Shown here piece by piece: positions 9,575 to 50,572 of a stretch of DNA of 53,385 bases. Each line of letters opens with the position of its first letter. Position 1 is the first letter of the stretch. Below the pieces are notes generated by a model. That model saw nothing but the letters and a program-made list of their open reading frames with translations. It made no database searches and had not been told where the DNA came from. Position numbers and translations under genes: made by a program. Location of the stretch: NCBI GenBank assembly GCA_964347045.1, contig CAYFXC010000008.1, positions 20,373 through 73,757 on the forward strand. The letters are read 5' to 3'. This stretch comes from an uncultured archaeon (GTDB lineage: Archaea; Asgardarchaeota; Hermodarchaeia; Hermodarchaeales; Hermodarchaeaceae).

Positions 9575-10207
9575 CTATTCTTTAACTTCTTTTTTCAGGC
9601 GTTCAAGTTCGCGTTTTGTCCGCTCACGCCTTTCCTCAGAAGTTTCGAGAAGCTCTTCTTCTCCTTCTGGTACAGAAGGCAATTGACCGGCTTCTTCAAG
9701 GGCAATCATGGTCTCGATATCCTCGAGTTCTGCATCTACTTCAGCGTCCATTTCTTCATCGTCAAGACCTAGACCAAGAATTTCTTCGGTTGCTTCAGCT
9801 TCTTCGATGAGGGCTTGAGTTTCAAGAATGACCTCACGGGCAACTTCAGGTGAAGCAGTTTCTCGTAGCTTTTCAAGTTCAGCGCCTATACCTTTAAGAG
9901 CACCAATAACTTCGGTTTCGCCACGAGCTTGGTCTATGGCTTCAACACCGCGTTCCATTAGATCGATTTCTTGCTCAATTAATCTAGCTTTTCGTAGATA
10001 GCGTTGACGTCGACGGAGTTGAAGCTTGGCAGCTTTACGATCCCCCCGTCGAACATATCTAACCGCCTTTATCCGAGAATCCTTAGCCTTTGTTTCATAT
10101 TGACGACCACGGACTTCGAGTTTATCAGTCACCCGGTGAATCCGAGCAATAGTATCTTCCTTGGGTTCAGGTTTTTTCGGAAAGAGTTTTTCCCAGAATT
10201 TTGCCAT
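9575..10207 (-). CDS. ESCRT-III protein, Snf7/Vps20/32/60-like
   Basis: Amphipathic N-terminus MAKFWEKLF (ATG 10207 after GGAGG); basic hairpin GDRKAAKLQLRRRQRY; acidic tail DEEMDAEVDAELEDI; LPSVP (MIM2-like) motif. Confidence 0.9.
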   Translation of the reverse strand: MAKFWEKLFPKKPEPKEDTIARIHRVTDKLEVRGRQYETKAKDSRIKAVRYVRRGDRKAAKLQLRRRQRYLRKARLIEQEIDLMERGVEAIDQARGETEVIGALKGIGAELEKLRETASPEVAREVILETQALIEEAEATEEILGLGLDDEEMDAEVDAELEDIETMIALEEAGQLPSVPEGEEELLETSEERRERTKRELERLKKEVKE

Positions 10208-10211
10208 TTGT

Positions 10212-10823
10212 CTAGCCCTCCTCCTTAAGTCGTTCAATCTCTTTTTCTAGTTCAGAAACCCGTTTTTCGGGTTCAGGAAGTGAGGTACCCGTTTCGATTT
10301 CGATTTCCGAATCGAGTTCTTTCAACGCGTCTTTTACTTCTCCGTCAGTTACTTCAGTGGACACAGCCATACGCTCCATTCCCGCTTCAGCTACCTCTTG
10401 AGTCATTTCGAAGTGGCGCAGGTTGCCTTCAATCTGATCGACTAATTTGGCAACCTCAGGGACCTTAACTTGGCTCTTGAGTCCACCGAGCGCAGAGTTG
10501 AGCTGTCCAAGGATTTTTGCAACCTCACCCATAGCTTCGCTTTGACGCAATTGTGTTTGTAATCCTTCAATTCGCAGACGATAGGCATCTACGCTTAAGG
10601 CCCATTTCTGGAACCGCAGATGATGCTGTAAATACATTCGTGTAGCATCCATATTGCCTTGGAGTCGGTATTTTTTAGCTCGTTGACGGCTTTTACTCGC
10701 TTCTTTTTCGAGCATCTTGCGTTGTAAATCGAGCTTCCGCGTGAATACATCGAGGCGGAAGATGAGTTTTTTCAAATCGGTTCCGCCGCCCAACCATGAT
10801 ACAAATCGGCGAATAGCAGACAT
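10212..10823 (-). CDS. ESCRT-III protein, Vps2/24/46-like
   Basis: Basic N-terminal helices (GNMDATRMYLQHHLR), acidic C-terminus, terminal ELEKEIERLK (MIM1-like) helix. Confidence 0.88.
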   Translation of the reverse strand: MSAIRRFVSWLGGGTDLKKLIFRLDVFTRKLDLQRKMLEKEASKSRQRAKKYRLQGNMDATRMYLQHHLRFQKWALSVDAYRLRIEGLQTQLRQSEAMGEVAKILGQLNSALGGLKSQVKVPEVAKLVDQIEGNLRHFEMTQEVAEAGMERMAVSTEVTDGEVKDALKELDSEIEIETGTSLPEPEKRVSELEKEIERLKEEG

Positions 10824-11009
10824 TATCGTTACCTTCCAGAGAATCCTTCAAATCGAACCTATTATACTTTTGGTCTCAAGGTCTTTAATGCCACGGTTCC
10901 ATGTATCGATTCGCAAAAAACAGGGAATCAAAACACTTACTTTTCTGAAAAAAGAAGAAAATGCCCGGCAACCTATACCAAGAGTTTTCGGGCACAATTC
11001 AATGTGAGC

Positions 11010-11735
11010 CTATTGTTTGTTTGCACTTGCACGAGCAAACATCGAAAGTCCAATGACAGCTAGCAATATTCCGATAAAGCCCAGAGCTAGCATCGACAGC
11101 ATGATCGGGGCAAGGAATAAGACGAAAGCCATACTCATTGCGGAGATCGCCCATAGTAATAGGCCGATCATGGCAATCCAATTCCCAGTTTTCATACCGC
11201 CTTCCTGCTGTTTTGTAACTCGATAGGTATGAATGAGTGGTAGTATGAACATATAGATAATTGCGAGGAGACCACCGTAAATGACAACACCCCAAGGCAT
11301 TGCGAGCCAGTGTAAAATACCGTCTGAAACGGTGACAGTGCTAGTGGGTGTGGTGAATAACCAGAGCACTGCAAGAAAGGAAATGGTGCCAATAAGAAAA
11401 AGATACTACATCCATTGTGGCAGAGGAATTGTTTTTGCACTGAATATAAAGAAGACCATGAAAAAGGCGTAAAGAGCAACACACGACCAAGCTCCTAAAT
11501 AATATGGAAGGAGTTGGTTCGGCGTGGCTATCGCAGGAAGCAGATACATCATTGATGCGAGGATTGAATAGGCGAACAGAAGAAAGATAATGGTGAGGAA
11601 GCTGAGCCAATTATATTCCTTTCGTTCTTCATTAGAAATCACTGTTCGGAATGTAACGATTGTTAGAAACAGTATCAAGATCCAAGTTAGAATTATGAGA
11701 GCAAAATGAATAGGTGTTTCATGAATGTAAAGCAT
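11010..11735 (-). pseudogene. Multi-pass (~7 TM) membrane protein interrupted by one in-frame TAG
   Basis: ORFs 11406..11735 and 11010..11369 share a frame. Only TAG at 11408-11406 separates them, and the bridging codons read YLFLIGTISFLA. Confidence 0.7.
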
Positions 11736-11810
11736 TCCTAGGAACCCCTCTGCACTCCATTTCGTTACATATGTTATAAAAACTCTATCATTCCATTTTT
11801 GGCGTTTTTT

Positions 11811-12941
11811 TTACAAATTGCCGCTCTCAAGATACGATAAAAGTTGATCCTTACTCATATCTGCAATTCCAAGATCTTCAAGCGTTCGTCCTTCTTTCCA
11901 AAAGTTCTTTTTCTTTATGGACGAGTACAGATTAATCTGTGCATCAATAATTGGTGTCTCCACTCCCAGTTTATCACCAAGAAGTCCAACTGGAACTAGT
12001 CCATAGGGGATATCTTCACTTACATACCGATCATCCAGAGAATGAGGGCCTTTGACCGAGGCAATGATTTCATTGGTTCTTTTTGGTGCCTGAAAAACTC
12101 GGGCCATTGGACTTACAGAGGTTCTAAACTCGGGTGAAGGATGGGAGAGAGGTTCAAGCCCTAAAGCGTTACCTACTGCAGTAAATTCTTTGTAGGTGGC
12201 TTCGATGATTTGACCAACTGATGTAGTAATACCTTCACGGTAGAGATTGAACTCACCACCAGAATACTCAATTCGACCTGTATTGAGAAGCGTCGCAGGG
12301 GGATGGATATAGGGGTTCGGATTGCTCAGGGCGACTTCGATGACATTGGTTGCCTTTTGAGGTTGTTTTATTCTCAGCCCATTGACTTCATGTGCGGGAT
12401 ATAGATCAACGAGAAGCTGATGTATTTTTGAGGTGAATGTGGCGGGAAATGCTGAGACAGAAAACTCTGTAGCAACTAATAAACAATCAACTTGTCCAGG
12501 ACCATAAAGACGACAGCCATAAGGAAGGGTGCTAGTTTCAGCTATAACAACATCAGAAGCCACGTTTTTTTTGCGAAGAAGCTGGGCCATTTCAAGCGAT
12601 CCGAAGTTGCCCGGAAGAAGAATTAGGGACTGGCCTGATTCTAAATGAGGAGCTAATAGGTCAGCAATTGGGGCATGACCAAAGGCGGGAACCACAATCA
12701 TGATAAACTCAACATCTGTTATGGCTTTAGCGATATCCGTTGTTGCTAATTCAACTTTTACAACCCCTTCACCATAAAGCCCCTTGAGCTCGATTTCCCT
12801 AGTTTTAAGTGTGTGTTCGATGTTCTTCTTAAACTGGGGAAGTTCGAAAAAATTGATGGTGTGACCATCGAATGTAAGATGTCCCGCCATCTGGTGACCA
12901 CCATTACCACCCCCTATTACACAAAGATGATAGGATTTCAT
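11811..12941 (-). CDS. NAD/NADP octopine/nopaline (opine) dehydrogenase family protein
   Basis: GGGNGG Rossmann motif, ETSTLPYGCR, LSNPNPYIHP, RYVSEDIPYGLVP. Confidence 0.9.
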   Translation of the reverse strand: MKSYHLCVIGGGNGGHQMAGHLTFDGHTINFFELPQFKKNIEHTLKTREIELKGLYGEGVVKVELATTDIAKAITDVEFIMIVVPAFGHAPIADLLAPHLESGQSLILLPGNFGSLEMAQLLRKKNVASDVVIAETSTLPYGCRLYGPGQVDCLLVATEFSVSAFPATFTSKIHQLLVDLYPAHEVNGLRIKQPQKATNVIEVALSNPNPYIHPPATLLNTGRIEYSGGEFNLYREGITTSVGQIIEATYKEFTAVGNALGLEPLSHPSPEFRTSVSPMARVFQAPKRTNEIIASVKGPHSLDDRYVSEDIPYGLVPVGLLGDKLGVETPIIDAQINLYSSIKKKNFWKEGRTLEDLGIADMSKDQLLSYLESGNL

Positions 12942-12982
12942 ACAATTCCTCCAGAGTGTGCATAATTGTAGATGAGCTAGGT

Positions 12983-13966
12983 CTAAGATTGTTTGCCTGA
13001 TAAAGCCATTTTCAAATGTTTAAGTGATACATTTCCACCCGAGCAAATAAGACCCACTCTTTTATCTTGGAGTTGTTGACGAATTTTGAAAGCAGCAGCA
13101 AGCGGTGCAGCCCCAGCGCCCTCAGCGAGGGTGTGGGCTTTTGTAATCATCCAAACCATTGCTTGAAGTATTTCTTGATCACTGACCAGAATGAACCCGT
13201 CGAGGTACTTCTGAAGGATTCCTTGTGGTAATGAAAACGCAGTTCCTGTTGCGAGTCCTTCAGCAAAGGTTTGATTGGGTGCCTCAACTAATCTGTGTTG
13301 TTTCCAAGATTGATAGGCAGCAGGAGATGCCTCCGATTGCACACCAATCACTTCGATTTTAGATTTTTGCGCTTTGGCTACAATACATGTTCCCGCAGCA
13401 CCACTTCCGCCTCCGACAGGCACAATTATTACTTGAAGTTTAGGTTCTTGTTGGAGCATTTCTAATGCTTGAGTTCCTACGCCTGCTATCAGCTCAGGCT
13501 CGTTACCAGAATGTATATAACGATAGCCATGTTTTTCTGCTAATCTTTCACAATGAATTCTTGATTCATCATAATTAATACCATGAAAGATGATTTTTGC
13601 TCCCATCGCTTTCATAGGAGCGATTTTTCCCGGATTGGCTCCTTCAGGAACTACAACGATTGCGCGGACACCAAAGATCTTCGCGGCATAAGCTATCGAT
13701 TGACCATGGTTCCCTGTTGATGCACCTATCACGCCCTGCTTTTTTTCCTGTTTTGAGAGTTGAGAAATTAGGTTAATGCCACCTCGGACTTTGAAAGCAC
13801 CAATTGGTTGATAGTTCTCATGTTTGATATAAACCTCAGTTCCAATCAGTTCATTTATGGAAGCATAGCTATGGAGTGGAGTGGGTTGCAGGTAAGATTT
13901 TATTCGGTTTTGGGCTTGTAACACATCTTTGAACTCTGGAATTCGCATAACGAGTTCTCCTGTCAA
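12983..13966 (-). CDS. PLP-dependent threonine/serine dehydratase (no ACT domain)
   Basis: KHENYQPIGAFKVRG, ASTGNHGQS, VPVGGGSG, EGAGAA and CSGGN motifs. Confidence 0.93.
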   Translation of the reverse strand: MTGELVMRIPEFKDVLQAQNRIKSYLQPTPLHSYASINELIGTEVYIKHENYQPIGAFKVRGGINLISQLSKQEKKQGVIGASTGNHGQSIAYAAKIFGVRAIVVVPEGANPGKIAPMKAMGAKIIFHGINYDESRIHCERLAEKHGYRYIHSGNEPELIAGVGTQALEMLQQEPKLQVIIVPVGGGSGAAGTCIVAKAQKSKIEVIGVQSEASPAAYQSWKQHRLVEAPNQTFAEGLATGTAFSLPQGILQKYLDGFILVSDQEILQAMVWMITKAHTLAEGAGAAPLAAAFKIRQQLQDKRVGLICSGGNVSLKHLKMALSGKQS

Positions 13967-14216
13967 AATATTAAGGGCTGATCTGTATTTTGAGAGTTTC
14001 GAGTCTTCTTAAATACTGGTTTTGAGATTTGATGGATAAAAAAGAACAGAAAATTGTAGTTTTAACCCTAGTTTAGAATGCGTTCTTCAATTGGTTCGTT
14101 TTCTAGAGTTGAATAAGTATTGATGAAGTTCTTCCCTTGTAAATGCCCTCCCTTTTAAGTATCTCTTGAAATCGATAAGAACGAACAAGAAAAAGACGAT
14201 GTTAGAACAGCTGTGG

Positions 14217-14314
14217 ACCTGTAAATTTTGTCATCCGTTGGGACCTACCTGTAAAGCCTTAAGAAGGCGTTTTTGAGGGCGATAACCAACAAATTTTTTC
14301 AAAAATTTCTCGGG
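14217..14314 (+). repeat. Intergenic direct repeat copy R1 (core AAGAAGGCGTTT at 14261)
   Basis: Left arm plus core aligns ungapped to 18081-18136 (42/56 identical by hand count). Right arm GGGCGATAACCA...AATTTTTTCA...TTTCTCGGG matches 16536-16575. Confidence 0.85.
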
Positions 14315-14327
14315 AATACATAAAAGC

Positions 14328-14390
14328 GCCTAACGTTCAGTTGTATGGTAAGAGATACAGGGATAATATCATTGTAAAAACAAGTTAGGC
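14328..14390 (+). other. Candidate integron attC-like site
   Basis: GCCTAAC (RYYYAAC) at 14328 and GTTAGGC (GTTRRRY) at 14384 are perfectly complementary, span 63 bp and end 9 bp before a gene start. The internal L-box pairing is weak. Confidence 0.45.
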
Positions 14391-14399
14391 GGTGGAAGC

Positions 14400-14912
14400 G
14401 TGGCCCTAGACTTATTCTTGTTCGTTGCGATCGCGGAAATCGCAGGAATCTTTGTGGGCTTCGGCGCTCTCATCAGTGTAGCACGCTGGGGCGAGATTGA
14501 GCCGGCTCAACTTGCGCGGATTCGCGGTCTCGTCACGGTCGGACTTATGGTGATCGTCGTCGCCCTTATACCAGTCGGTCTTGACCTCTACGGGATCACT
14601 GATCACGCTCTCTGGTTCATATCTAGCCTCATCTTCTTTACGCTCAACTGGATTGTGCTCATCTTGTCTTTGCGAGATCCCCTGAATATAGAACTCATGA
14701 AAACCGAAATACAGACCAGGCCCGTGATAAATGTGCTCTTTTGGCTCTTGCTCGAGGTCCCACTTCAGGTCCCCCTAATTCTCACCATGTTTGGCTTGTA
14801 CCCGCATCTAGAACCCGCCTTCTATTCAACAGCGCTCTTGTTCAGCTTATTTGAAGCCACGTTCGCTCTTGTGCAGATCGTCTATTCGCAAGCTAGTCCA
14901 ACAAGTGTCTAA
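14400..14912 (+). CDS. Hypothetical membrane protein (cassette-like)
   Basis: 170 aa with ~5 hydrophobic segments, visibly more GC-rich than its flanks; the stop codon lies inside GTCTAAC. Confidence 0.75.
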   Translation: MALDLFLFVAIAEIAGIFVGFGALISVARWGEIEPAQLARIRGLVTVGLMVIVVALIPVGLDLYGITDHALWFISSLIFFTLNWIVLILSLRDPLNIELMKTEIQTRPVINVLFWLLLEVPLQVPLILTMFGLYPHLEPAFYSTALLFSLFEATFALVQIVYSQASPTSV

Positions 14913-15048
14913 CGCACCTGTCGTCTCACCAGGAGCAGCAGGTGACCACTCAACTCCGGTTCAATCGGACATCTAAACAAAGATCAGTTAAATGGCTCCA
15001 CTAATTACTAGAATCGCACCAGAAAATATTACTTCGATTCTTTAAAGT

Positions 15049-15603
15049 TCAGAAGAGTCCAAGAAAGCGGATGAGACCAATGATATGGTAGATTATTGCA
15101 ATAATTGTGCCAATAAGTCCAATCCATTGGAGGCTGGTTGTGATTCGTTGATGAGAAAAGGTAGATATGATTGGATCGGGCTGATAGTCTTTAGGAATCG
15201 ATTTGGGTCGTTTTGTTCCCTTGGGACCGAACGAATCAACTTCTGGGAATATGTCGATTTCTATAACTCCGCGTGTAATTAGTTTAGTTAGACACCGAAC
15301 GAAATCAAATTTTTTCAGGCTGAGTAGAGTACTAGCGGTAGTTATCCGTGTAGGGTGAGTAACGGAAGCGACAAACCCTGCGACAATTCGTAATTTACCA
15401 ACTTCGTTCCATTGACTAGTAGCAATCCATATACCTAAGAAGACAAAAATGAGAGGGACTGAAAACCATGGGATGGTTAGCATCAGCAGAGCACCAAAGG
15501 CAATGATTCCTGCTATGGCGATGGCTACCCCGATTCCAATTATTATTGTATAACCTTCAATTAACCGACCCATGTTCTTATGATCTAACCTCATTTTCAC
15601 CAC
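15049..15603 (-). CDS. Hypothetical membrane protein with possible winged-helix-like middle
   Basis: Two N-terminal TM segments, a soluble middle region and a C-terminal TM segment. Confidence 0.6.
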   Translation of the reverse strand: MVKMRLDHKNMGRLIEGYTIIIGIGVAIAIAGIIAFGALLMLTIPWFSVPLIFVFLGIWIATSQWNEVGKLRIVAGFVASVTHPTRITTASTLLSLKKFDFVRCLTKLITRGVIEIDIFPEVDSFGPKGTKRPKSIPKDYQPDPIISTFSHQRITTSLQWIGLIGTIIAIIYHIIGLIRFLGLF

Positions 15604-15783
15604 AGATATGGAAGGAATTCTTGAGTGTGATTCAGCGAACTGTCTATTTATGTATGTATCTATAATTATAGCCAGCTAGTATCAGAAAACAAATCAAAGC
15701 TTAGATAGCCGTTTTTCATTTTTCAACAAAAGAATAGGGATTTGATGATGCGCTACAACCGAGTTTTGTGGAGTAGACCACAT

Positions 15784-15823
15784 TTAAGAAGGCGTTTTTA
15801 GGGGCGAACTCCATAAAATACGC
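15784..15823 (+). repeat. Intergenic direct repeat copy R2 (core at 15786)
   Basis: TTAAGAAGGCGTTTTTAGGGGCGA matches R1/R3; 15792-15823 can fold into a bulged hairpin. Confidence 0.75.
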
Positions 15824-15898
15824 ACTCTCACTCTACTTATTCCCAGTATCTTTTTTTGGAAGTTCAGCTCTCATCTTATTAAGGAGGAGGATCCTATC

Positions 15899-16420
15899 GT
15901 GGTCAGATTTGTCCCCTATAATCCGACTTCCCATCGAGTACAGTTCTTGGAATTGAATATTGAGTTTATAACATTCATCGCGAATCAAATGCGTGTTCAC
16001 CATAATATTGACCCCGAGGTTCATGGAGGAGGACAGACTATACAAGAATATGTTGAAATTCACCTCGACAAATTCGCAAAAATAAGACCCCCTAAAGGAA
16101 TAATCTACATCGTTGAATCGGAAGGGAAAGCAATAGGGATGGGGGCGCTAAGTTCACTCGATATCGGAGTTGGCGAAATCAAACGCATGTATATCCGTCC
16201 AGAACATAGAGGAAAAGGTATAGGAAGAAGGCTACTGACGAAATTACTGAAAAAGGCAAAGGAGTTTGGATATACGTCTCTGCGCCTTGAAAGCCAAGAC
16301 TTCATGACGGTGGCGCACAAATTATACAGGTCTATAGGATTTCAAGAAACAGATGCATATCCCGGTAGTGAAACCCCGGATTGGTATCCCCATAATTTAT
16401 ACATGAAAATTGATTTGTAG
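15899..16420 (+). CDS. GNAT-family N-acetyltransferase
   Basis: GEIKRMYIRPEHRGKGIGRRLL and AHKLYRSIGF motifs; AGGAGG RBS. Confidence 0.93.
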   Translation: MVRFVPYNPTSHRVQFLELNIEFITFIANQMRVHHNIDPEVHGGGQTIQEYVEIHLDKFAKIRPPKGIIYIVESEGKAIGMGALSSLDIGVGEIKRMYIRPEHRGKGIGRRLLTKLLKKAKEFGYTSLRLESQDFMTVAHKLYRSIGFQETDAYPGSETPDWYPHNLYMKIDL

Positions 16421-16507
16421 CATTTCAATCTGAAATCTCTAAAGAAAAACTATTGAAGAATTCGTTAGTTTGCCTATCCTTCAAAGGCTGATTAATACCA
16501 AAGCCAT

Positions 16508-16575
16508 CCCGCAAAGACTAAAGAAGGCGTTTCTGGGGGCGATAACCACATAATTTTTTCAGGGGTTTTCTCGGG
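16508..16575 (+). repeat. Intergenic direct repeat copy R3 (core at 16521)
   Basis: CCCGCAAAGACTAAAGAAGGCGTTT is identical to 18112-18136; the right arm matches R1. Confidence 0.88.
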
Positions 16576-16770
16576 TGATAACTAGATAAGTCAACCCCTT
16601 CTTTTGTTGTCATCGCACTAGTAAATCTGCCAGGCATAAACACCTCACAGTATATTTTGTGGTCTTAACCCTGAATTTTGTAAAACAAACCTGAAGCTAG
16701 TTTTGTGTTGAAGTTCATTTCTTCCTAATCAGCAGTGGCTTTACAGATGCCGAGGAGCTGATCAAAGATA

Positions 16771-17751
16771 TCATTTCGGGAGATTATTCAGGAACTCTAT
16801 TCTCTTCTTCTCGATCTCATCCTTGTCTTCTCCTACCCACAAGAAATGTCCACCATGGACTTCAAAGAGTTCAGCATGTGCGATATTTTCTTTTAGGTAT
16901 TCAGCGTGGTGCCACTTAACGTCATTATCCATTCTGCTGTATATCAACAGGGTAGGAAATGATATCTGATCAACTGGAATTACGTCGATTTCGTCCATCA
17001 ATCTCACATCATGAATTAACCCCTTCTTCCTATGGCTTAGTGGCAAGGTTGTATTGGTTAAATCCCGTACCCACTTCTTTCTGACTTCATCATTTGATAC
17101 TAACTTCACGAAATCATCCAGTTCACTTTTCTCATACAATGTTTCAAGTTTAAGAACTGCTTTGAAAATGGCAGCAAAACCGATCTTCATGAAAACCGCA
17201 GTTAACCATCCCGATAAGTCATCCAATCCTCTCATAAAAAAGAGCCGTGCCCATCCATCCAGCATTCCCTCACTGCTATATTCTGATGCTACTCCAGCCT
17301 CCATTATCAGTCCATTAACTCTCTCTGGATATTTATTGGCGAGGAATAGAGCAACAGGTCCTCCTGCAGAGAGTCCATCAACCACTACTTTTTCGATATT
17401 TAGACTATCCATCAGGGCTACACAGAGGTCAGCTTGTTCTTCATAAGAGAGGGGTTTGAAAGGAGTTCCAAGATATCCCGTTCTGGAGGGAGCCAAGATG
17501 GAATAGCCATGTTCTATTAGATATTCAAGCATGAATCCCTGATCAAAGCCACCGGGACCGCCATGTAACACCAAGACGGTTGGACCCTCTCCTGCAAGCT
17601 TGTATTCTATCTCACCAAGCTTGGTTTCAGCTATGATTCCATCTTTCAATGTTGCCAATAATCCTCTTTTCCAAGCGAAATATCGGAATATGATGAAAAC
17701 TAGGAGGATGAAAACGATTCCAAGAGTGATTAGTAATGCATCTAGTGCCAT
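16771..17751 (-). CDS. Membrane-anchored alpha/beta hydrolase
   Basis: N-terminal TM segment; LHGGPGG oxyanion motif, GLSAGG nucleophile elbow, Asp and GGH catalytic positions. Confidence 0.92.
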   Translation of the reverse strand: MALDALLITLGIVFILLVFIIFRYFAWKRGLLATLKDGIIAETKLGEIEYKLAGEGPTVLVLHGGPGGFDQGFMLEYLIEHGYSILAPSRTGYLGTPFKPLSYEEQADLCVALMDSLNIEKVVVDGLSAGGPVALFLANKYPERVNGLIMEAGVASEYSSEGMLDGWARLFFMRGLDDLSGWLTAVFMKIGFAAIFKAVLKLETLYEKSELDDFVKLVSNDEVRKKWVRDLTNTTLPLSHRKKGLIHDVRLMDEIDVIPVDQISFPTLLIYSRMDNDVKWHHAEYLKENIAHAELFEVHGGHFLWVGEDKDEIEKKRIEFLNNLPK

Positions 17752-18080
17752 CTTTGGCCATTTGTATCAGAATTCGTCTAAATTAAATCTTCCCTACCTA
17801 TGATAATCAATTGGATTCCTAGTTCTCCTAGGAACATGTGATGGCTGAATCCATAAGAGAGAAGGACAACTTAGGGGGGACTAAGAGCTCCAAGGGTCAT
17901 GAGTATTTGATTGCGTGTCTCAAAATGCGTACCCCATTCTCTTGCGGTCCGCAACAATACCATGAGCCCCCCTATCCCTATACCATATCAAGACTAAACT
18001 CACAGATTTTGACCAAGACCATCCTGACGAATTGCAGGATGACAAGGGGTTAATTGTAGTTTCTCAGGATAAGAAAGTTA

Positions 18081-18136
18081 ACCTGCAAAATTTGTCCTAT
18101 GCTAGTGCGTACCCGCAAAGACTAAAGAAGGCGTTT
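18081..18136 (+). repeat. Intergenic direct repeat copy R4 (core at 18125), directly upstream of vps4
   Basis: Shares left arm and core with R1/R3 but not the right arm; followed by the vps4 leader. Confidence 0.88.
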
Positions 18137-18176
18137 TCCTGAGTAGTGTTAAGTGTATTCGAAAGGTTGATAGTAA

Positions 18177-19334
18177 TTGACGAGTTCAGCGATGTTTCAA
18201 CTTGCAGAGACGAAAGCCAAGGAAGCCTTGGTCTTAGACCAGCAGGGCAAGCGGTCTGGAGCCATGTCTAAGTACATAGAAGCGGCAGATATCCTTGTAC
18301 GTGTTATGAAAGTCTCGAAGAATCCTCAACTTCGTCGAATTGCCTTAGAGCGCGCGGACCAATATGTAGCTCGTGCCAAAACGTTGCGCAGTGCGAAACT
18401 CCCTGCGGGGGGTCCTGTTCCGGATTTTGAAGGCGTGGAGATTGTTGATCAAGAGGATAAGGAGTTGCAAGAAGACATCGATAGTATGATCATCAAAGAA
18501 AAGCCTGATGTCAAGTGGGAGGATGTGGCCAATCTTGAGGAGGCGAAACAAGCGCTTCGAGAATCGGTCATTTTGCCTTTATTACGACCTGATTTGTTTA
18601 CGGGGGCTCGGCGTCCATGGAAAGGGGTTTTGATTTTTGGTCCTCCGGGATGTGGAAAGACCCTGATTGCGAAAGCGGTGGCCAATGAAGCGGGATGCAC
18701 CTTCTTTAACGCCGATGCTGCTTCCCTTGTTTCCAAGTGGTTGGGTGAATCGGAGCGCTTGGTGAAAAATCTCTTTGCGTCAGCTAGGAAAGAGCAACCA
18801 GCGATTGTGTTTATGGATGAAGTTGATGCACTCACCGCTGAACGTGGTGCTGATCAGGTAGGTGGTGAACGCCGGTTGAAAACCCAATTCTTGATTGAAA
18901 TGGATGGAATGAAGAGTAGGAAAGGTGACCATATTGTCGTTTTAGGTGCAACCAACCGTCCTTGGGATCTTGATGCAGCATTTCGTCGACGTTTTGAGCG
19001 GAGGATTTTGGTGCCTATTCCAGAATTTGAAGCCCGCGTTCGTATCTTTGAGATTCATACAAGGGGCATTGATTTGGCTCCGGATGTTGACTTTAACCTC
19101 CTTGGAGAAAAAACAGATGGGTATGCTGGGTCAGATATTGCGCTCATCTGTCGTGAAGCTTCTCTCCAACCAATTCGTGAATTGGACGCGTCGGGTGCAA
19201 TTCGAGACAAAGAAGTTATGGCCCGTTCTGTGAATCTCCAAGATTTTCTTGATGCCCTGAAAAACATCCGATCAGTGGTGTCACCAGAAGAACAAGCCAG
19301 GTATATTGAATGGGATAACACGCATGGTTCATAG
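18177..19334 (+). CDS. vps4: Vps4 AAA+ ATPase (MIT + AAA)
   Basis: N-terminal MIT (AKEALVLDQQG...Y..RA..L); GPPGCGKT, SKWLGESERLV, FMDEVD, ATNRPWDLDAAFRRRFERR motifs. Confidence 0.95.
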   Translation: MTSSAMFQLAETKAKEALVLDQQGKRSGAMSKYIEAADILVRVMKVSKNPQLRRIALERADQYVARAKTLRSAKLPAGGPVPDFEGVEIVDQEDKELQEDIDSMIIKEKPDVKWEDVANLEEAKQALRESVILPLLRPDLFTGARRPWKGVLIFGPPGCGKTLIAKAVANEAGCTFFNADAASLVSKWLGESERLVKNLFASARKEQPAIVFMDEVDALTAERGADQVGGERRLKTQFLIEMDGMKSRKGDHIVVLGATNRPWDLDAAFRRRFERRILVPIPEFEARVRIFEIHTRGIDLAPDVDFNLLGEKTDGYAGSDIALICREASLQPIRELDASGAIRDKEVMARSVNLQDFLDALKNIRSVVSPEEQARYIEWDNTHGS

Positions 19335-19344
19335 GGGATAGAAC

Positions 19345-20073
19345 GTGTCGAAGGAAAAGTCCAGGGAACGCGCTAAGGAGAAAGAGAAAGATGAGCTGCG
19401 TGCTGATGTGAAGCTCACCGAGGAGGACTGGATTGACCTTCTGCAAAAGACACGTGAGCAGATGGCGAGTGTTGAGCAAGCGGATGAAACCGCCGTTCTT
19501 GTAATGCCTGTAACCGAGGAAGAAGAGAAACAGCTTGAGGACTTAGCCCGAAAAGCCGTTGAAAAACTCGGTCGACGATTTGTTTGGATTGCAAAACGTG
19601 GCCGATATGGCTTCATGTTTGTGATTCCAACCTCAGAAGCAGATATCGAACAGTGGGGTGCCGAATGGGCAGGTTTTACCGTTGACTATTGCCGAGAAAT
19701 GCTAATGCATATTGTCTCGACTCGAACGCTGGTGATGTTAGATCCTTTCAATGAGATACGTCCAGATCGAATGAAGGCAGTCAAAATCATTCTTGGGGTT
19801 TTAGTGAAAGAAGAGCTGGGGCGATGGATTGATGAAGCCGAGGGGATTATTCGAATTACCTGGAAAACCGATGAAGAATGGGCGAATGAAATTCGTCAGT
19901 GGGCATTAAAAACGGGAAGAACCACTTTTACACTCTTTAAACTGAAAGAGTATCGAAAGGATCTGGCAAAGCTACCAAAATCTGAACTTCGGATTATTCT
20001 TCAACGTCTTGTGGAACGCAAGCAAGCAAAATGGCTAGATCGGGAACAAGAAGTTGTAGAAGTTCTTGTTTAA
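19345..20073 (+). CDS. vps25: ESCRT-II Vps25-like protein
   Basis: QWGAEWAGF..DYC and WKTDEEWANEIRQWA tandem winged-helix pattern; adjacent to vps4. Confidence 0.8.
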   Translation: MSKEKSRERAKEKEKDELRADVKLTEEDWIDLLQKTREQMASVEQADETAVLVMPVTEEEEKQLEDLARKAVEKLGRRFVWIAKRGRYGFMFVIPTSEADIEQWGAEWAGFTVDYCREMLMHIVSTRTLVMLDPFNEIRPDRMKAVKIILGVLVKEELGRWIDEAEGIIRITWKTDEEWANEIRQWALKTGRTTFTLFKLKEYRKDLAKLPKSELRIILQRLVERKQAKWLDREQEVVEVLV

Positions 20074-20090: not shown

Positions 20091-20843
20091 TTATTCGGCA
20101 GGGTTGAGTCCGGGGAAGAAGTATCGTTTACCATGGACAAAAGACTTATCGATTTTTGCTGCACCCACTGATTCGAGGCTTTTAAGGGCAGCATCAGCTC
20201 TTTCTTGAGTCCAATTGGTTTGTGTTATGACTTCTTCCAGGGTGGTGAAGCCTGTTCGGCTTGCGACCGAAAGAACTGCGACCTGATCATTGGTAAGTTC
20301 TCGTGGAACGAGTTCAACAATTCGGATTCCTGAGGGGAGTTTTCGAATGCCTGGGACTAGCTTAGCATTAGCAAGATTTTGAATGGCCTTTGCGACATCG
20401 ACTTGGGAGACGCTAGAACGGCGTTGTTTATTGACAATTAACACAATTTCAGCTAGGGTCATAATGCCGCCTGTGGCTTCTCGACGCCGCTTGGCAATAT
20501 CTAAGATTTGGAGACCGAGTTCATCATAGAACCGTCCTCGACCTGTAAGACGTTCCATTAATCCAGGTTTCTCTTTCATATCTTGAGAAAAGGGAATTCC
20601 AGGCATAGTGATTCCTAGTTCATGGGCAATCGTAGCAGCTTTCTCACTATATTCAGGTGAGACTTCTATAACTTCGCCGTAGGTTTGTTCAAAGACATCT
20701 GCTTTTTCTCGTAATTCCGATATAGTTTGGAGCATGTGTTCGAGTTCTTTGAGCATGAGTTCGACGCGTTTCTTTTTGTAAGCGGCGTCCATTTCCATTT
20801 GTTTTTCAATTTCCCAAAGTCCCATGATCTTTTTCCTCCTCAT
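20091..20843 (-). CDS. ESCRT-II Vps22/36 (EAP30)-like protein
   Basis: FYDELGLQI...TGGIMTLAE, VPRELTNDQ, WTQERA...L and RYFFPG are typical of EAP30/Vps22. Confidence 0.9.
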   Translation of the reverse strand: MRRKKIMGLWEIEKQMEMDAAYKKKRVELMLKELEHMLQTISELREKADVFEQTYGEVIEVSPEYSEKAATIAHELGITMPGIPFSQDMKEKPGLMERLTGRGRFYDELGLQILDIAKRRREATGGIMTLAEIVLIVNKQRRSSVSQVDVAKAIQNLANAKLVPGIRKLPSGIRIVELVPRELTNDQVAVLSVASRTGFTTLEEVITQTNWTQERADAALKSLESVGAAKIDKSFVHGKRYFFPGLNPAE

Positions 20844-50495: not shown

Positions 50496-50572
50496 TGGCG
50501 GGCCCGCAGGGATTTGAACCCCGGATCTCTGGATCCGCAATCCAGCGCCATATCCTACTAGGCCACGGGCCC
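50496..50572 (-). tRNA. tRNA-Arg (anticodon GCG), CCA encoded
   Basis: Reverse complement GGGCCCGTGGCCTAGTAGGATATGGCG-CTGGA TTGCGGA TCCAG-AGATCCGGGGTTCAAATCCCTGCGGGCCCGCCA folds as a cloverleaf. Confidence 0.95.

Follow-up and report, generated by a model that had tools for sequence, protein, structure and literature searches.

To our knowledge, no system other than the integron is yet well understood that stockpiles and shuffles promoter-adjacent cassettes without a recombinase in each of them. Elements that exploit Xer recombinases include the integrative mobile elements exploiting Xer (IMEX) and the pdif modules of Acinetobacter plasmids, and the tycheposons of Prochlorococcus islands reportedly comprise tandem integrative elements and integrase-less satellites gathered at a single attB. 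Integrons and integrase-less attC clusters (CALINs) have been reported in Archaea and are enriched in metagenome-assembled genomes (MAGs) of Asgard archaea (PMC9668308), and the biology of Xer recombinases and their dif sites has been described (PMC2958812, PMC5357621). Here we analyze a 53,385-nucleotide stretch of contig CAYFXC010000008.1 from an uncultured archaeon of the Hermodarchaeaceae (the whole stretch is hereafter referred to as the window), in which a 7.3-kb island (10824–18176) between an ESCRT-III gene pair and vps4 carries an array of composite repeats, each built around a 12-bp core, with small sets of unrelated genes between them. Our reading, to which we assign a probability of roughly 60%, is that the array captures modules in the manner of an integron but at a site of a new kind, the modules being exchanged by site-specific recombination within the core, via circles and in trans, with the box-bearing arms in an accessory role.

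The core, AAGAAGGCGTTT, is present in the window as four exact copies in direct orientation on the + strand (R1–R4, at 14261, 15786, 16521, and 18125), spaced by 1525, 735, and 1604 bp and all intergenic. When up to one mismatch is allowed there are five copies against 0.37 expected, a count reached by none of 100 shuffles, and the genome as a whole (G000 in what follows; a MAG of 83 contigs, 2.58 Mb, 43% G+C, and 89% completeness) has six exact copies, the four of the window and two elsewhere. R3 and R4 share an exact run of 25 bp, R1 and R4 align ungapped at 42 of 56 positions, and R1–R3 have a common right arm beginning GGGCGA, in place of which R4 continues into the vps4 leader (40 nt separate its core from the vps4 TTG start at 18177). 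The four copies with their spacing and intergenic placement, the pairwise identities, and the diverging right arm of R4 had been noticed in a preliminary description of this DNA and were reproduced by our searches and alignments; the repeat units are longer than was given there, with profile extents of 14216–14314, 15737–15810, 16474–16598, and 18076–18136.

Each of the four sites (all +) can be resolved into a left arm, core, and right arm. R1 (14216–14314) has a left arm of family L1, the core at 14261–14272, and a right arm of the kind found on modules, Rp (nhmmer E = 4e-7 for L1 and 2e-12 for Rp). R2 (15737–15810) has a left arm of a second family, L2, the core at 15786–15797, and a decayed Rp (E = 2e-18 and 3e-4, respectively), while R3 (16474–16650) has L1, the core at 16521–16532, and a full Rp (E = 4e-14 and 4e-22) that contains two direct GATAAC boxes plus one inverted box. 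R4 (18076–18176) joins L1 (E = 5e-20) and the core at 18125–18136 to the vps4 leader, Rb, which includes a Shine–Dalgarno-like AGGTTGAT.

The anatomy of the site across the genus was derived from a stack of ~49 copies in 15 genomes; all genomes used in this work are fragmented MAGs, 72–91% complete, with several arrays split over contigs, and the numbers of sites should be read as minima. The whole site spans ~200 bp, with a left arm of ~50–58 nt, the 12-bp core, and a right arm that is either the vps4 leader or the Rp arm (~80 nt, beyond which some conservation extends to about +135). The two left-arm families are unrelated to one another (in the window, L1 belongs to R1, R3, and R4, and L2 to R2). 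Over 49 sites, conservation reaches at least 90% at eleven positions of the core, as against 40–80% in the arms, and the twelfth core position (T or C) tracks the right-arm type. Boxes of the form GATRAS recur in Rp at +18 (34/46 sites), at +54 (17/46), and, inverted, near +84–95 (18/46), where chance would give 0.3 per bin; many L1 arms start with a similar box. All four combinations of arms are seen, with 20 L1–Rp, 13 L1–Rb, 12 L2–Rp, and 4 L2–Rb sites assigned by a simple classifier. Each module begins with the conserved Rp and its phased GATAAC boxes and is closed at its opposite end by a left arm, L1 or L2. An informal look at core decay against distance from vps4 gave no clear trend. A 14-nt segment of the L2 arms (e.g., 15737–15785), TTTTGTGGAGTAGA, also recurs without change where the vps4 leader begins in other species, and because of this shared stretch L2-type modules may stem from imprecise excision that captured the leader.

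Comparison with relatives reveals that modules have been inserted, lost, and exchanged at the core. In G004 and G005 the site is unoccupied, such that an Fe–S protein gene is followed by an L1 arm, one core, the leader, and vps4. At the same point G013 has an additional 1760 bp (a 349-aa gene), G003 an additional 1082 bp (a 220-aa gene in the opposite orientation), and G012 an additional 4688 bp (two modules, one of which is an ABC-transporter set of four genes). All three inserts have a core at either side. Homology of these three to G004/G005 stops at core position +10 to +12 on the left and restarts at core position 0 to −15 on the right. The G013 junctions illustrate the resulting hybrid arms: on the left, the old flank is kept (54/60 positions) and an Rp arm is gained (11/30 to the leader); on the right, a new L2 arm (18/60) precedes a leader that is kept (27/30).

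Shared modules tell the same story from the other side. The GNAT module of G000 is 91% identical to that of G010 from core position +1 onward, with an L2 left arm in the former and L1 in the latter; the arginase-family module F09 begins at core position 0 in G013, G012, and G008, as does the F26–F05 module in G001 and G008, both behind different arms. At four junctions (those of the GNAT, F09 arginase, and F26–F05 modules and of vps4), L1 and L2 arms with no mutual homology have been exchanged at the core. Across the pairs of genomes there are 75 internal ends of homology blocks, of which 26 fall within 15 bp of a core (random placement gave a mean of 1.0 and a maximum of 5 in 1000 trials; related genomes are not independent, and the effect is large), ten of them exactly at core position 0. 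The locus shows the pattern of an att-type site, with an identical core on both sides of an insert, one copy when empty, and hybrid arms. The preliminary description had proposed serial insertion of gene modules at one chromosomal site and had named breakpoints unrelated to the core as the finding that would speak against it; the proposal is supported by these gains, losses, and exchanges, and the comparison of empty and occupied sites yielded core duplications rather than such breakpoints.

The locus equally displays the pattern of a flexible island, a fixed position between conserved core genes with content that varies among relatives, which raises the question of whether homologous (RadA-type) recombination by itself could have produced it, the sites then being passive spacers (duplicated promoter segments), modules being swapped through the sites or the adjoining ESCRT genes once DNA had passed between cells, and the core junctions a reflection of the longest perfectly conserved stretch. 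Such an account would sit well with the lack of any recombinase associated with the array, with a left boundary of the island that varies without any site, and with the up to 25 bp of perfect and ~60 bp of high identity that L1 and the core together provide. We nonetheless regard it as unlikely, because at four independent junctions the swapped arms (L1 for L2, or Rp for leader) are without homology, leaving just the 11–12 bp of the core in common at the exchange point and no extended homology there. It also leaves unexplained why the same phased-box right arm accompanies unrelated cargo, and why, even at a distance from vps4, cores have stayed much more conserved than their arms.

Set beside integrons and CALINs, a capture array of the kind we favor shares with them small units of accessory genes, a conserved site in one orientation between units, a fixed platform site beside a promoter, units that occur in different orders across genomes, and (as in CALINs) a recombinase that is absent from the array. 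The site itself is of another kind, a 12-bp core with ~50-nt and 80–130-nt double-strand-type arms, with no attC and no IntI. The cargo also differs: integron cassettes are mostly single, co-oriented, promoterless open reading frames (ORFs), whereas modules here measure 0.7–3.7 kb and hold 1–4 genes in either orientation, with about half beginning with a reverse-strand gene. A consensus fold of 27 sites (RNAalifold) amounts to −0.32 kcal/mol with 2 pairs and so lacks the attC hairpin. Pairing between GCGATAAC and GTCATCGC was considered and rejected; the sequences are real, but they are 74.1% paired against 74.2% in shuffles, and there is no covariation. RYYYAAC...GTTRRRY boxes occur as one exact pair in the 7.3-kb island (14328–14390), off the module boundaries and unrepeated. 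This lone pair (GCCTAAC ... GTTAGGC, 63 bp, ~0.09 expected) lies between the R1 right arm and the gene starting at 14400, and may be an attC-like relic or chance. No IntI-type integrase was found in the genome (89% complete), in which the highest-scoring tyrosine recombinase reaches 154.9 bits with TIGR02249, whose cut-off is 265, and a search of 10800–18400 against all Rfam families at E up to 1 returned no match.

The likeness to IMEX elements and pdif modules lies in small, recombinase-less modules with short conserved sites and a presumed host Xer-type enzyme; a host Xer gene and an element without a recombinase are both found here. Unlike pdif, no 11–6–11 dif-like dyad was detected at the core (the best arrangement, in L1–Rp sites, averages 6.95/11 with a 10-bp spacer against an average maximum of 7.08 for random 75-bp windows, and L2 sites score 1–3/11), the arms are long and carry phased boxes, and the sites are all direct, chromosomal, and located at a promoter rather than inverted in alternation on plasmids. 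Tycheposon arrays would offer a parallel for serial integration at one att site, for a hypervariable island with direct att repeats, and for a long-armed attP-like site paired with a minimal attB. They differ in that the target here is the promoter/leader of a protein gene and not a tRNA gene, that the units are much smaller, and that no integrase is encoded on any island element examined; a tRNA target was rejected, the nearest tRNAs lying at 50496 and 52526. By these comparisons the sites are not attC-like (as judged by hairpin, pairing, and box tests), dif-like, tRNA-derived, or a known RNA, in agreement with the earlier statement that the site is neither attC nor dif. The logic of the array is thus known from integrons/CALINs and Xer-exploiting modules, while at the level of sequence every testable defining feature of those families is absent, and the array could stand as a new family once its enzyme is known. 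The same logic with an unrelated site would show that the strategy evolved more than once, and in Archaea.

We observe further that the modules move between species. Shared modules are 88–97% identical at the nucleotide level, as against 76–85% for the adjacent and strongly constrained vps4/vps25 in the same genome pairs: 89–97% versus 76% for G012–G013, 93% versus 78% for G008–G012, 91% versus 77% for G001–G002, 91% versus 80% for G013–G014, and 91% versus 84% for G000–G010. Genes near the ESCRT-III end of the island (e.g., the two membrane proteins) are only 67–79% identical and look vertically inherited. Judged from these identities, the modules have spread horizontally between species.

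Contigs from public sequencing runs (with a likeness of at least 90%, the evidence used being positive ends that run into unlike sequence) add alternative joins at the same points. The hydrolase module, from 16534–16571 to 18135, recurs with ~99% identity (6–15 differences) in contigs of three other studies; these begin just past the R3 core and end at the R4 core, and contigs that run past 18132–18136 continue into other Rp arms or unrelated sequence. One contig with the GNAT module has an L1 arm ahead of it, switching exactly at 15786. Mangrove and marine-sediment studies are among those in which the modules recur. Since these are assembled contigs, they demonstrate alternative joins and not frequencies; for runs X2, X4, and X10 no contig at 90% covered vps4 of G000 beyond ~18280, which was not counted as absence. 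A joint in run X10 that leads from 18136 back to 16573 might be taken for the junction of a circle, but we rejected this reading since the contig turns to different sequence after 45 nt of Rp; the joint is another array site.

The array is confined to one locus. Profiles of L1, L2, and Rp match this locus alone in the 2.58-Mb genome, and BLAST searches with the site in the 15 genomes of the genus recover nothing but contigs with either flank of the island (ESCRT-III or vps4) or with island fragments (contig G004:C48 counts as unplaced and unoriented with respect to the ESCRT genes). Arrays have from 3 to at least 9 sites (at least 9 in G013), all oriented like vps4, in islands of 7 to more than 25 kb (>25 kb in G012, >18 kb in G013). 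Among ~185,000 species genomes, the core-plus-Rp pattern is found in Hermodarchaeota MAGs only, apart from one chance match; it is found in none of 2.9 million viral contigs, and the seven metagenome contigs that have it represent the same locus with modules ordered differently.

The sister genus (G015, G017, and G018) retains what appears to be the starting point, with ESCRT-III and vps4 divergent and ~170–185 bp apart and a single core ~50 nt upstream of vps4. A core 40–50 nt upstream of vps4 is indeed present in 12/12 loci examined (nine same-genus and three sister-genus genomes). In five other sampled families the gap between ESCRT-III and vps4 is ~130 bp and contains no repeated promoter segment, and one of these has a related A/T-rich TAAAGAAG / TTTAAAGAAG at the equivalent place upstream of vps4. 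Because the sister genus has a lone core at this position and another family TTTAAAGAAG, the left half of the core seems to belong to a native A/T-rich (TATA-like) element that would be the putative promoter of vps4. On this distribution, the island is a novelty of this Hermodarchaeota genus and the single core is ancestral.

The fixed distance of the core from vps4 in 12/12 loci and two genera, and the related TAAAGAAG in another family, would also be expected if the repeats were cis-regulatory copies of the vps4 promoter that co-regulate neighboring genes and have no role in rearrangement, and R1, R2, and R4 do each lie upstream of a + strand gene. R3, however, faces the 3' end of a convergent gene, about half of the modules start with a reverse-strand gene, and within the genome the element is confined to this locus; the reading also offers no reason for insertions and deletions to terminate precisely at the core, and we consider this alternative scarcely tenable. 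The genome-wide scatter upstream of co-regulated genes, which the preliminary description had named as the mark of a promoter or transcription-factor site, was not seen, the arms being restricted to the locus and to island contigs.

How, then, might modules be captured? We propose that the array has grown as small packets of accessory genes entered, time after time, one chromosomal point, the 12-bp core in the vps4 promoter/leader. Each insertion leaves left arm–core–Rp on one side and left arm–core–vps4 leader on the other; with this geometry, vps4 always retains a core and the A/T-rich element upstream. The exchange would be a conservative site-specific recombination inside the core, and the intermediate a circular module with one complete site. 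As no module encodes a recombinase, catalysis would take place in trans, and the GATAAC boxes would be putative accessory (arm-type) binding sites.

The best candidate enzyme is a Xer-type tyrosine recombinase of 315 aa (G000:C12:27168–28115), the sole conserved tyrosine recombinase of the genus. The gene is 72–86% identical in 11 other genomes of the genus, with a fragment in a twelfth (G005), which puts it in 12–13 of the 14 others, and was not found in four sister-genus genomes (each 80–83% complete); it is patchy elsewhere in the phylum, where the best match outside is 41%. The protein passes the archaeal XerA model and lies far under the integron-integrase cut-off, and past its own lineage (down to 63%) its nearest relatives are bacterial XerC proteins at 42–46%. 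With one phyletic contrast behind it, we treat this gene as a lead and not as proof. Tentatively, and with somewhat less than even odds in our estimation, the full picture may be an undescribed Hermodarchaeota gene-capture platform, an integron analogue with a ~200-bp double-strand-type site in the vps4 promoter, with a Xer-type recombinase, specific to the lineage and of bacterial affinity, that would mobilize its modules in trans. For in vitro tests the array offers one candidate enzyme, an exchange point defined to 12 bp, and arms of two families.

A conserved palindrome-containing motif, TGGTAATACCA followed by GCGGTTAAAT, lies ~60–100 nt upstream of the Xer-type gene in most genomes of the genus (L079–L090); it is unlike the array core and could be an operator or the enzyme's own site. 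A second tyrosine integrase (G000:C9:121096–121863, 350 aa) is located at a contig end and is not conserved. Searches of the genus turned up no serine recombinase, and the recurrent island family F04, entertained as a hidden recombinase, was rejected, being a nitroreductase.

Several observations weigh against site-specific capture in trans. Searches with PF00589 and PF00239 in the 15 genomes revealed no recombinase in or beside any island; the preliminary description, which had found none in the window, holds for the entire contig with respect to tyrosine and serine recombinases, while the check it recommended, for recombinase genes next to other copies of the site, found none on the island contigs of the 15 genomes. 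The Xer-type gene is unlinked to the array, with no site-like sequence within 1.5 kb of it, and its connection to the array is circumstantial, being drawn from a single phylogenetic contrast among MAGs that are 72–91% complete. No circular junction was seen among the assembled contigs. Dyad symmetry in the core region does not rise above chance, and L2 sites are without even a weak dyad, which makes the core unlike a classical tyrosine-recombinase or dif core. Finally, the ESCRT-III-side boundary of the island (~10919–10931) is sharp and common to six genomes, ends in ...TTCGCAA, and lies ~100 bp from the start of ESCRT-IIIb; homology between genomes stops there, no site is detectable at this boundary, and different genes follow it in each genome. 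The capture model does not account for such a boundary, and part of the island variation must therefore arise otherwise.

The identical core that flanks each insertion and the existence of an empty, one-copy target would likewise be produced by non-autonomous transposons that insert in one orientation at a single target (as Tn7 and casposons do), if the core were a target-site duplication and the transposase or casposase were encoded elsewhere. Some modules have short inverted ends, L1 at its inner end matching the beginning of Rp at up to 9/11, and the genome has an IS110-family transposase gene on another contig (G000:C78:459–905, a 369-aa frame). Over the whole set, inverted ends do not exceed chance and are absent from L2-type modules, and the flanking repeat is always one sequence, contrary to the pattern of miniature inverted-repeat and DDE elements; no transposase was found in any island, nor was a Y1 transposase found, the searches (which did not include Cas1/casposase) yielding a TnpB fragment only. 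We accordingly think transposition of this type very unlikely, and retain site-specific recombination at the core as the preferred explanation.

The island is anchored on the left by the ESCRT-III gene pair (9575–10237 and 10212–10823, both −), with tblastn orthologues at 79–97% amino acid identity in the genus and sister genus, and on the right by vps4 (18177–19334, +), an AAA ATPase with MIT and Vps4_C domains (Pfam) that is 87–96% identical in amino acids across the genus; beyond it follow a Vps25-like gene (19345–20073) and an EAP30/Vps22-36-like gene (20091–20843, −), both assigned by Pfam. The vps4 start is apparently a conserved TTG preceded by AGGTTGAT in both genera (18165–18179 and orthologues), and conservation of the first in-frame ATG (18192 in the window) does not extend to the sister genus. 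Through its location within the ESCRT-III/vps4 promoter region, the array bears on the tolerance, and perhaps the regulation, of accessory genes beside eukaryote-like membrane-remodeling machinery in Asgard archaea.

The ESCRT-III-side part of the island (10824–14215) contains two small ORFs, an octopine-dehydrogenase-like gene (11811–12941, −), and a gene for a pyridoxal-phosphate-dependent enzyme (12983–13966, −; both by Pfam). The L1, L2, and Rp profiles have no match within it, and its four genes were found in G000 only among the islands compared. Module 1 (cargo 14315–15736) encodes two membrane proteins (14400–14912, +, and 15049–15603, −) that belong to no Pfam family and have homologues at 65–73% amino acid identity in other islands, mostly closer to ESCRT-III. 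Module 2 (cargo 15811–16473, +) carries a GNAT acetyltransferase gene (15899–16420; PF00583, E = 1e-19), and module 3 (cargo 16651–18075) an alpha/beta hydrolase gene (16771–17751, −; PF00561, E = 1e-17) and, between it and R4, a 71-aa ORF (17838–18053, +) that has no Pfam match and lies inside the module found ~99% identical in other metagenomes. ORFs and Pfam assignments thus agree with the preliminary account of intervals that each hold one or two unrelated genes in either orientation (membrane proteins, GNAT, hydrolase).

Cargo across the genus includes GNAT acetyltransferases, alpha/beta hydrolases, arginase-family proteins, an amidase, a Zn-dependent dehydrogenase, an Fe–S protein, nitroreductases, an amidohydrolase, MFS and Na/H transporters, and an ABC-transporter set, together with many ORFs without a Pfam family, and the module adjoining vps4 differs in nearly every species. 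Most MAG contigs of the genus (G004, G005, G007, G009, G011, and G008) break 60–1100 bp upstream of vps4 or inside it, probably through assembly failure brought about by repeated sites and strain variation, and the array explains why these breaks cluster just upstream of vps4.

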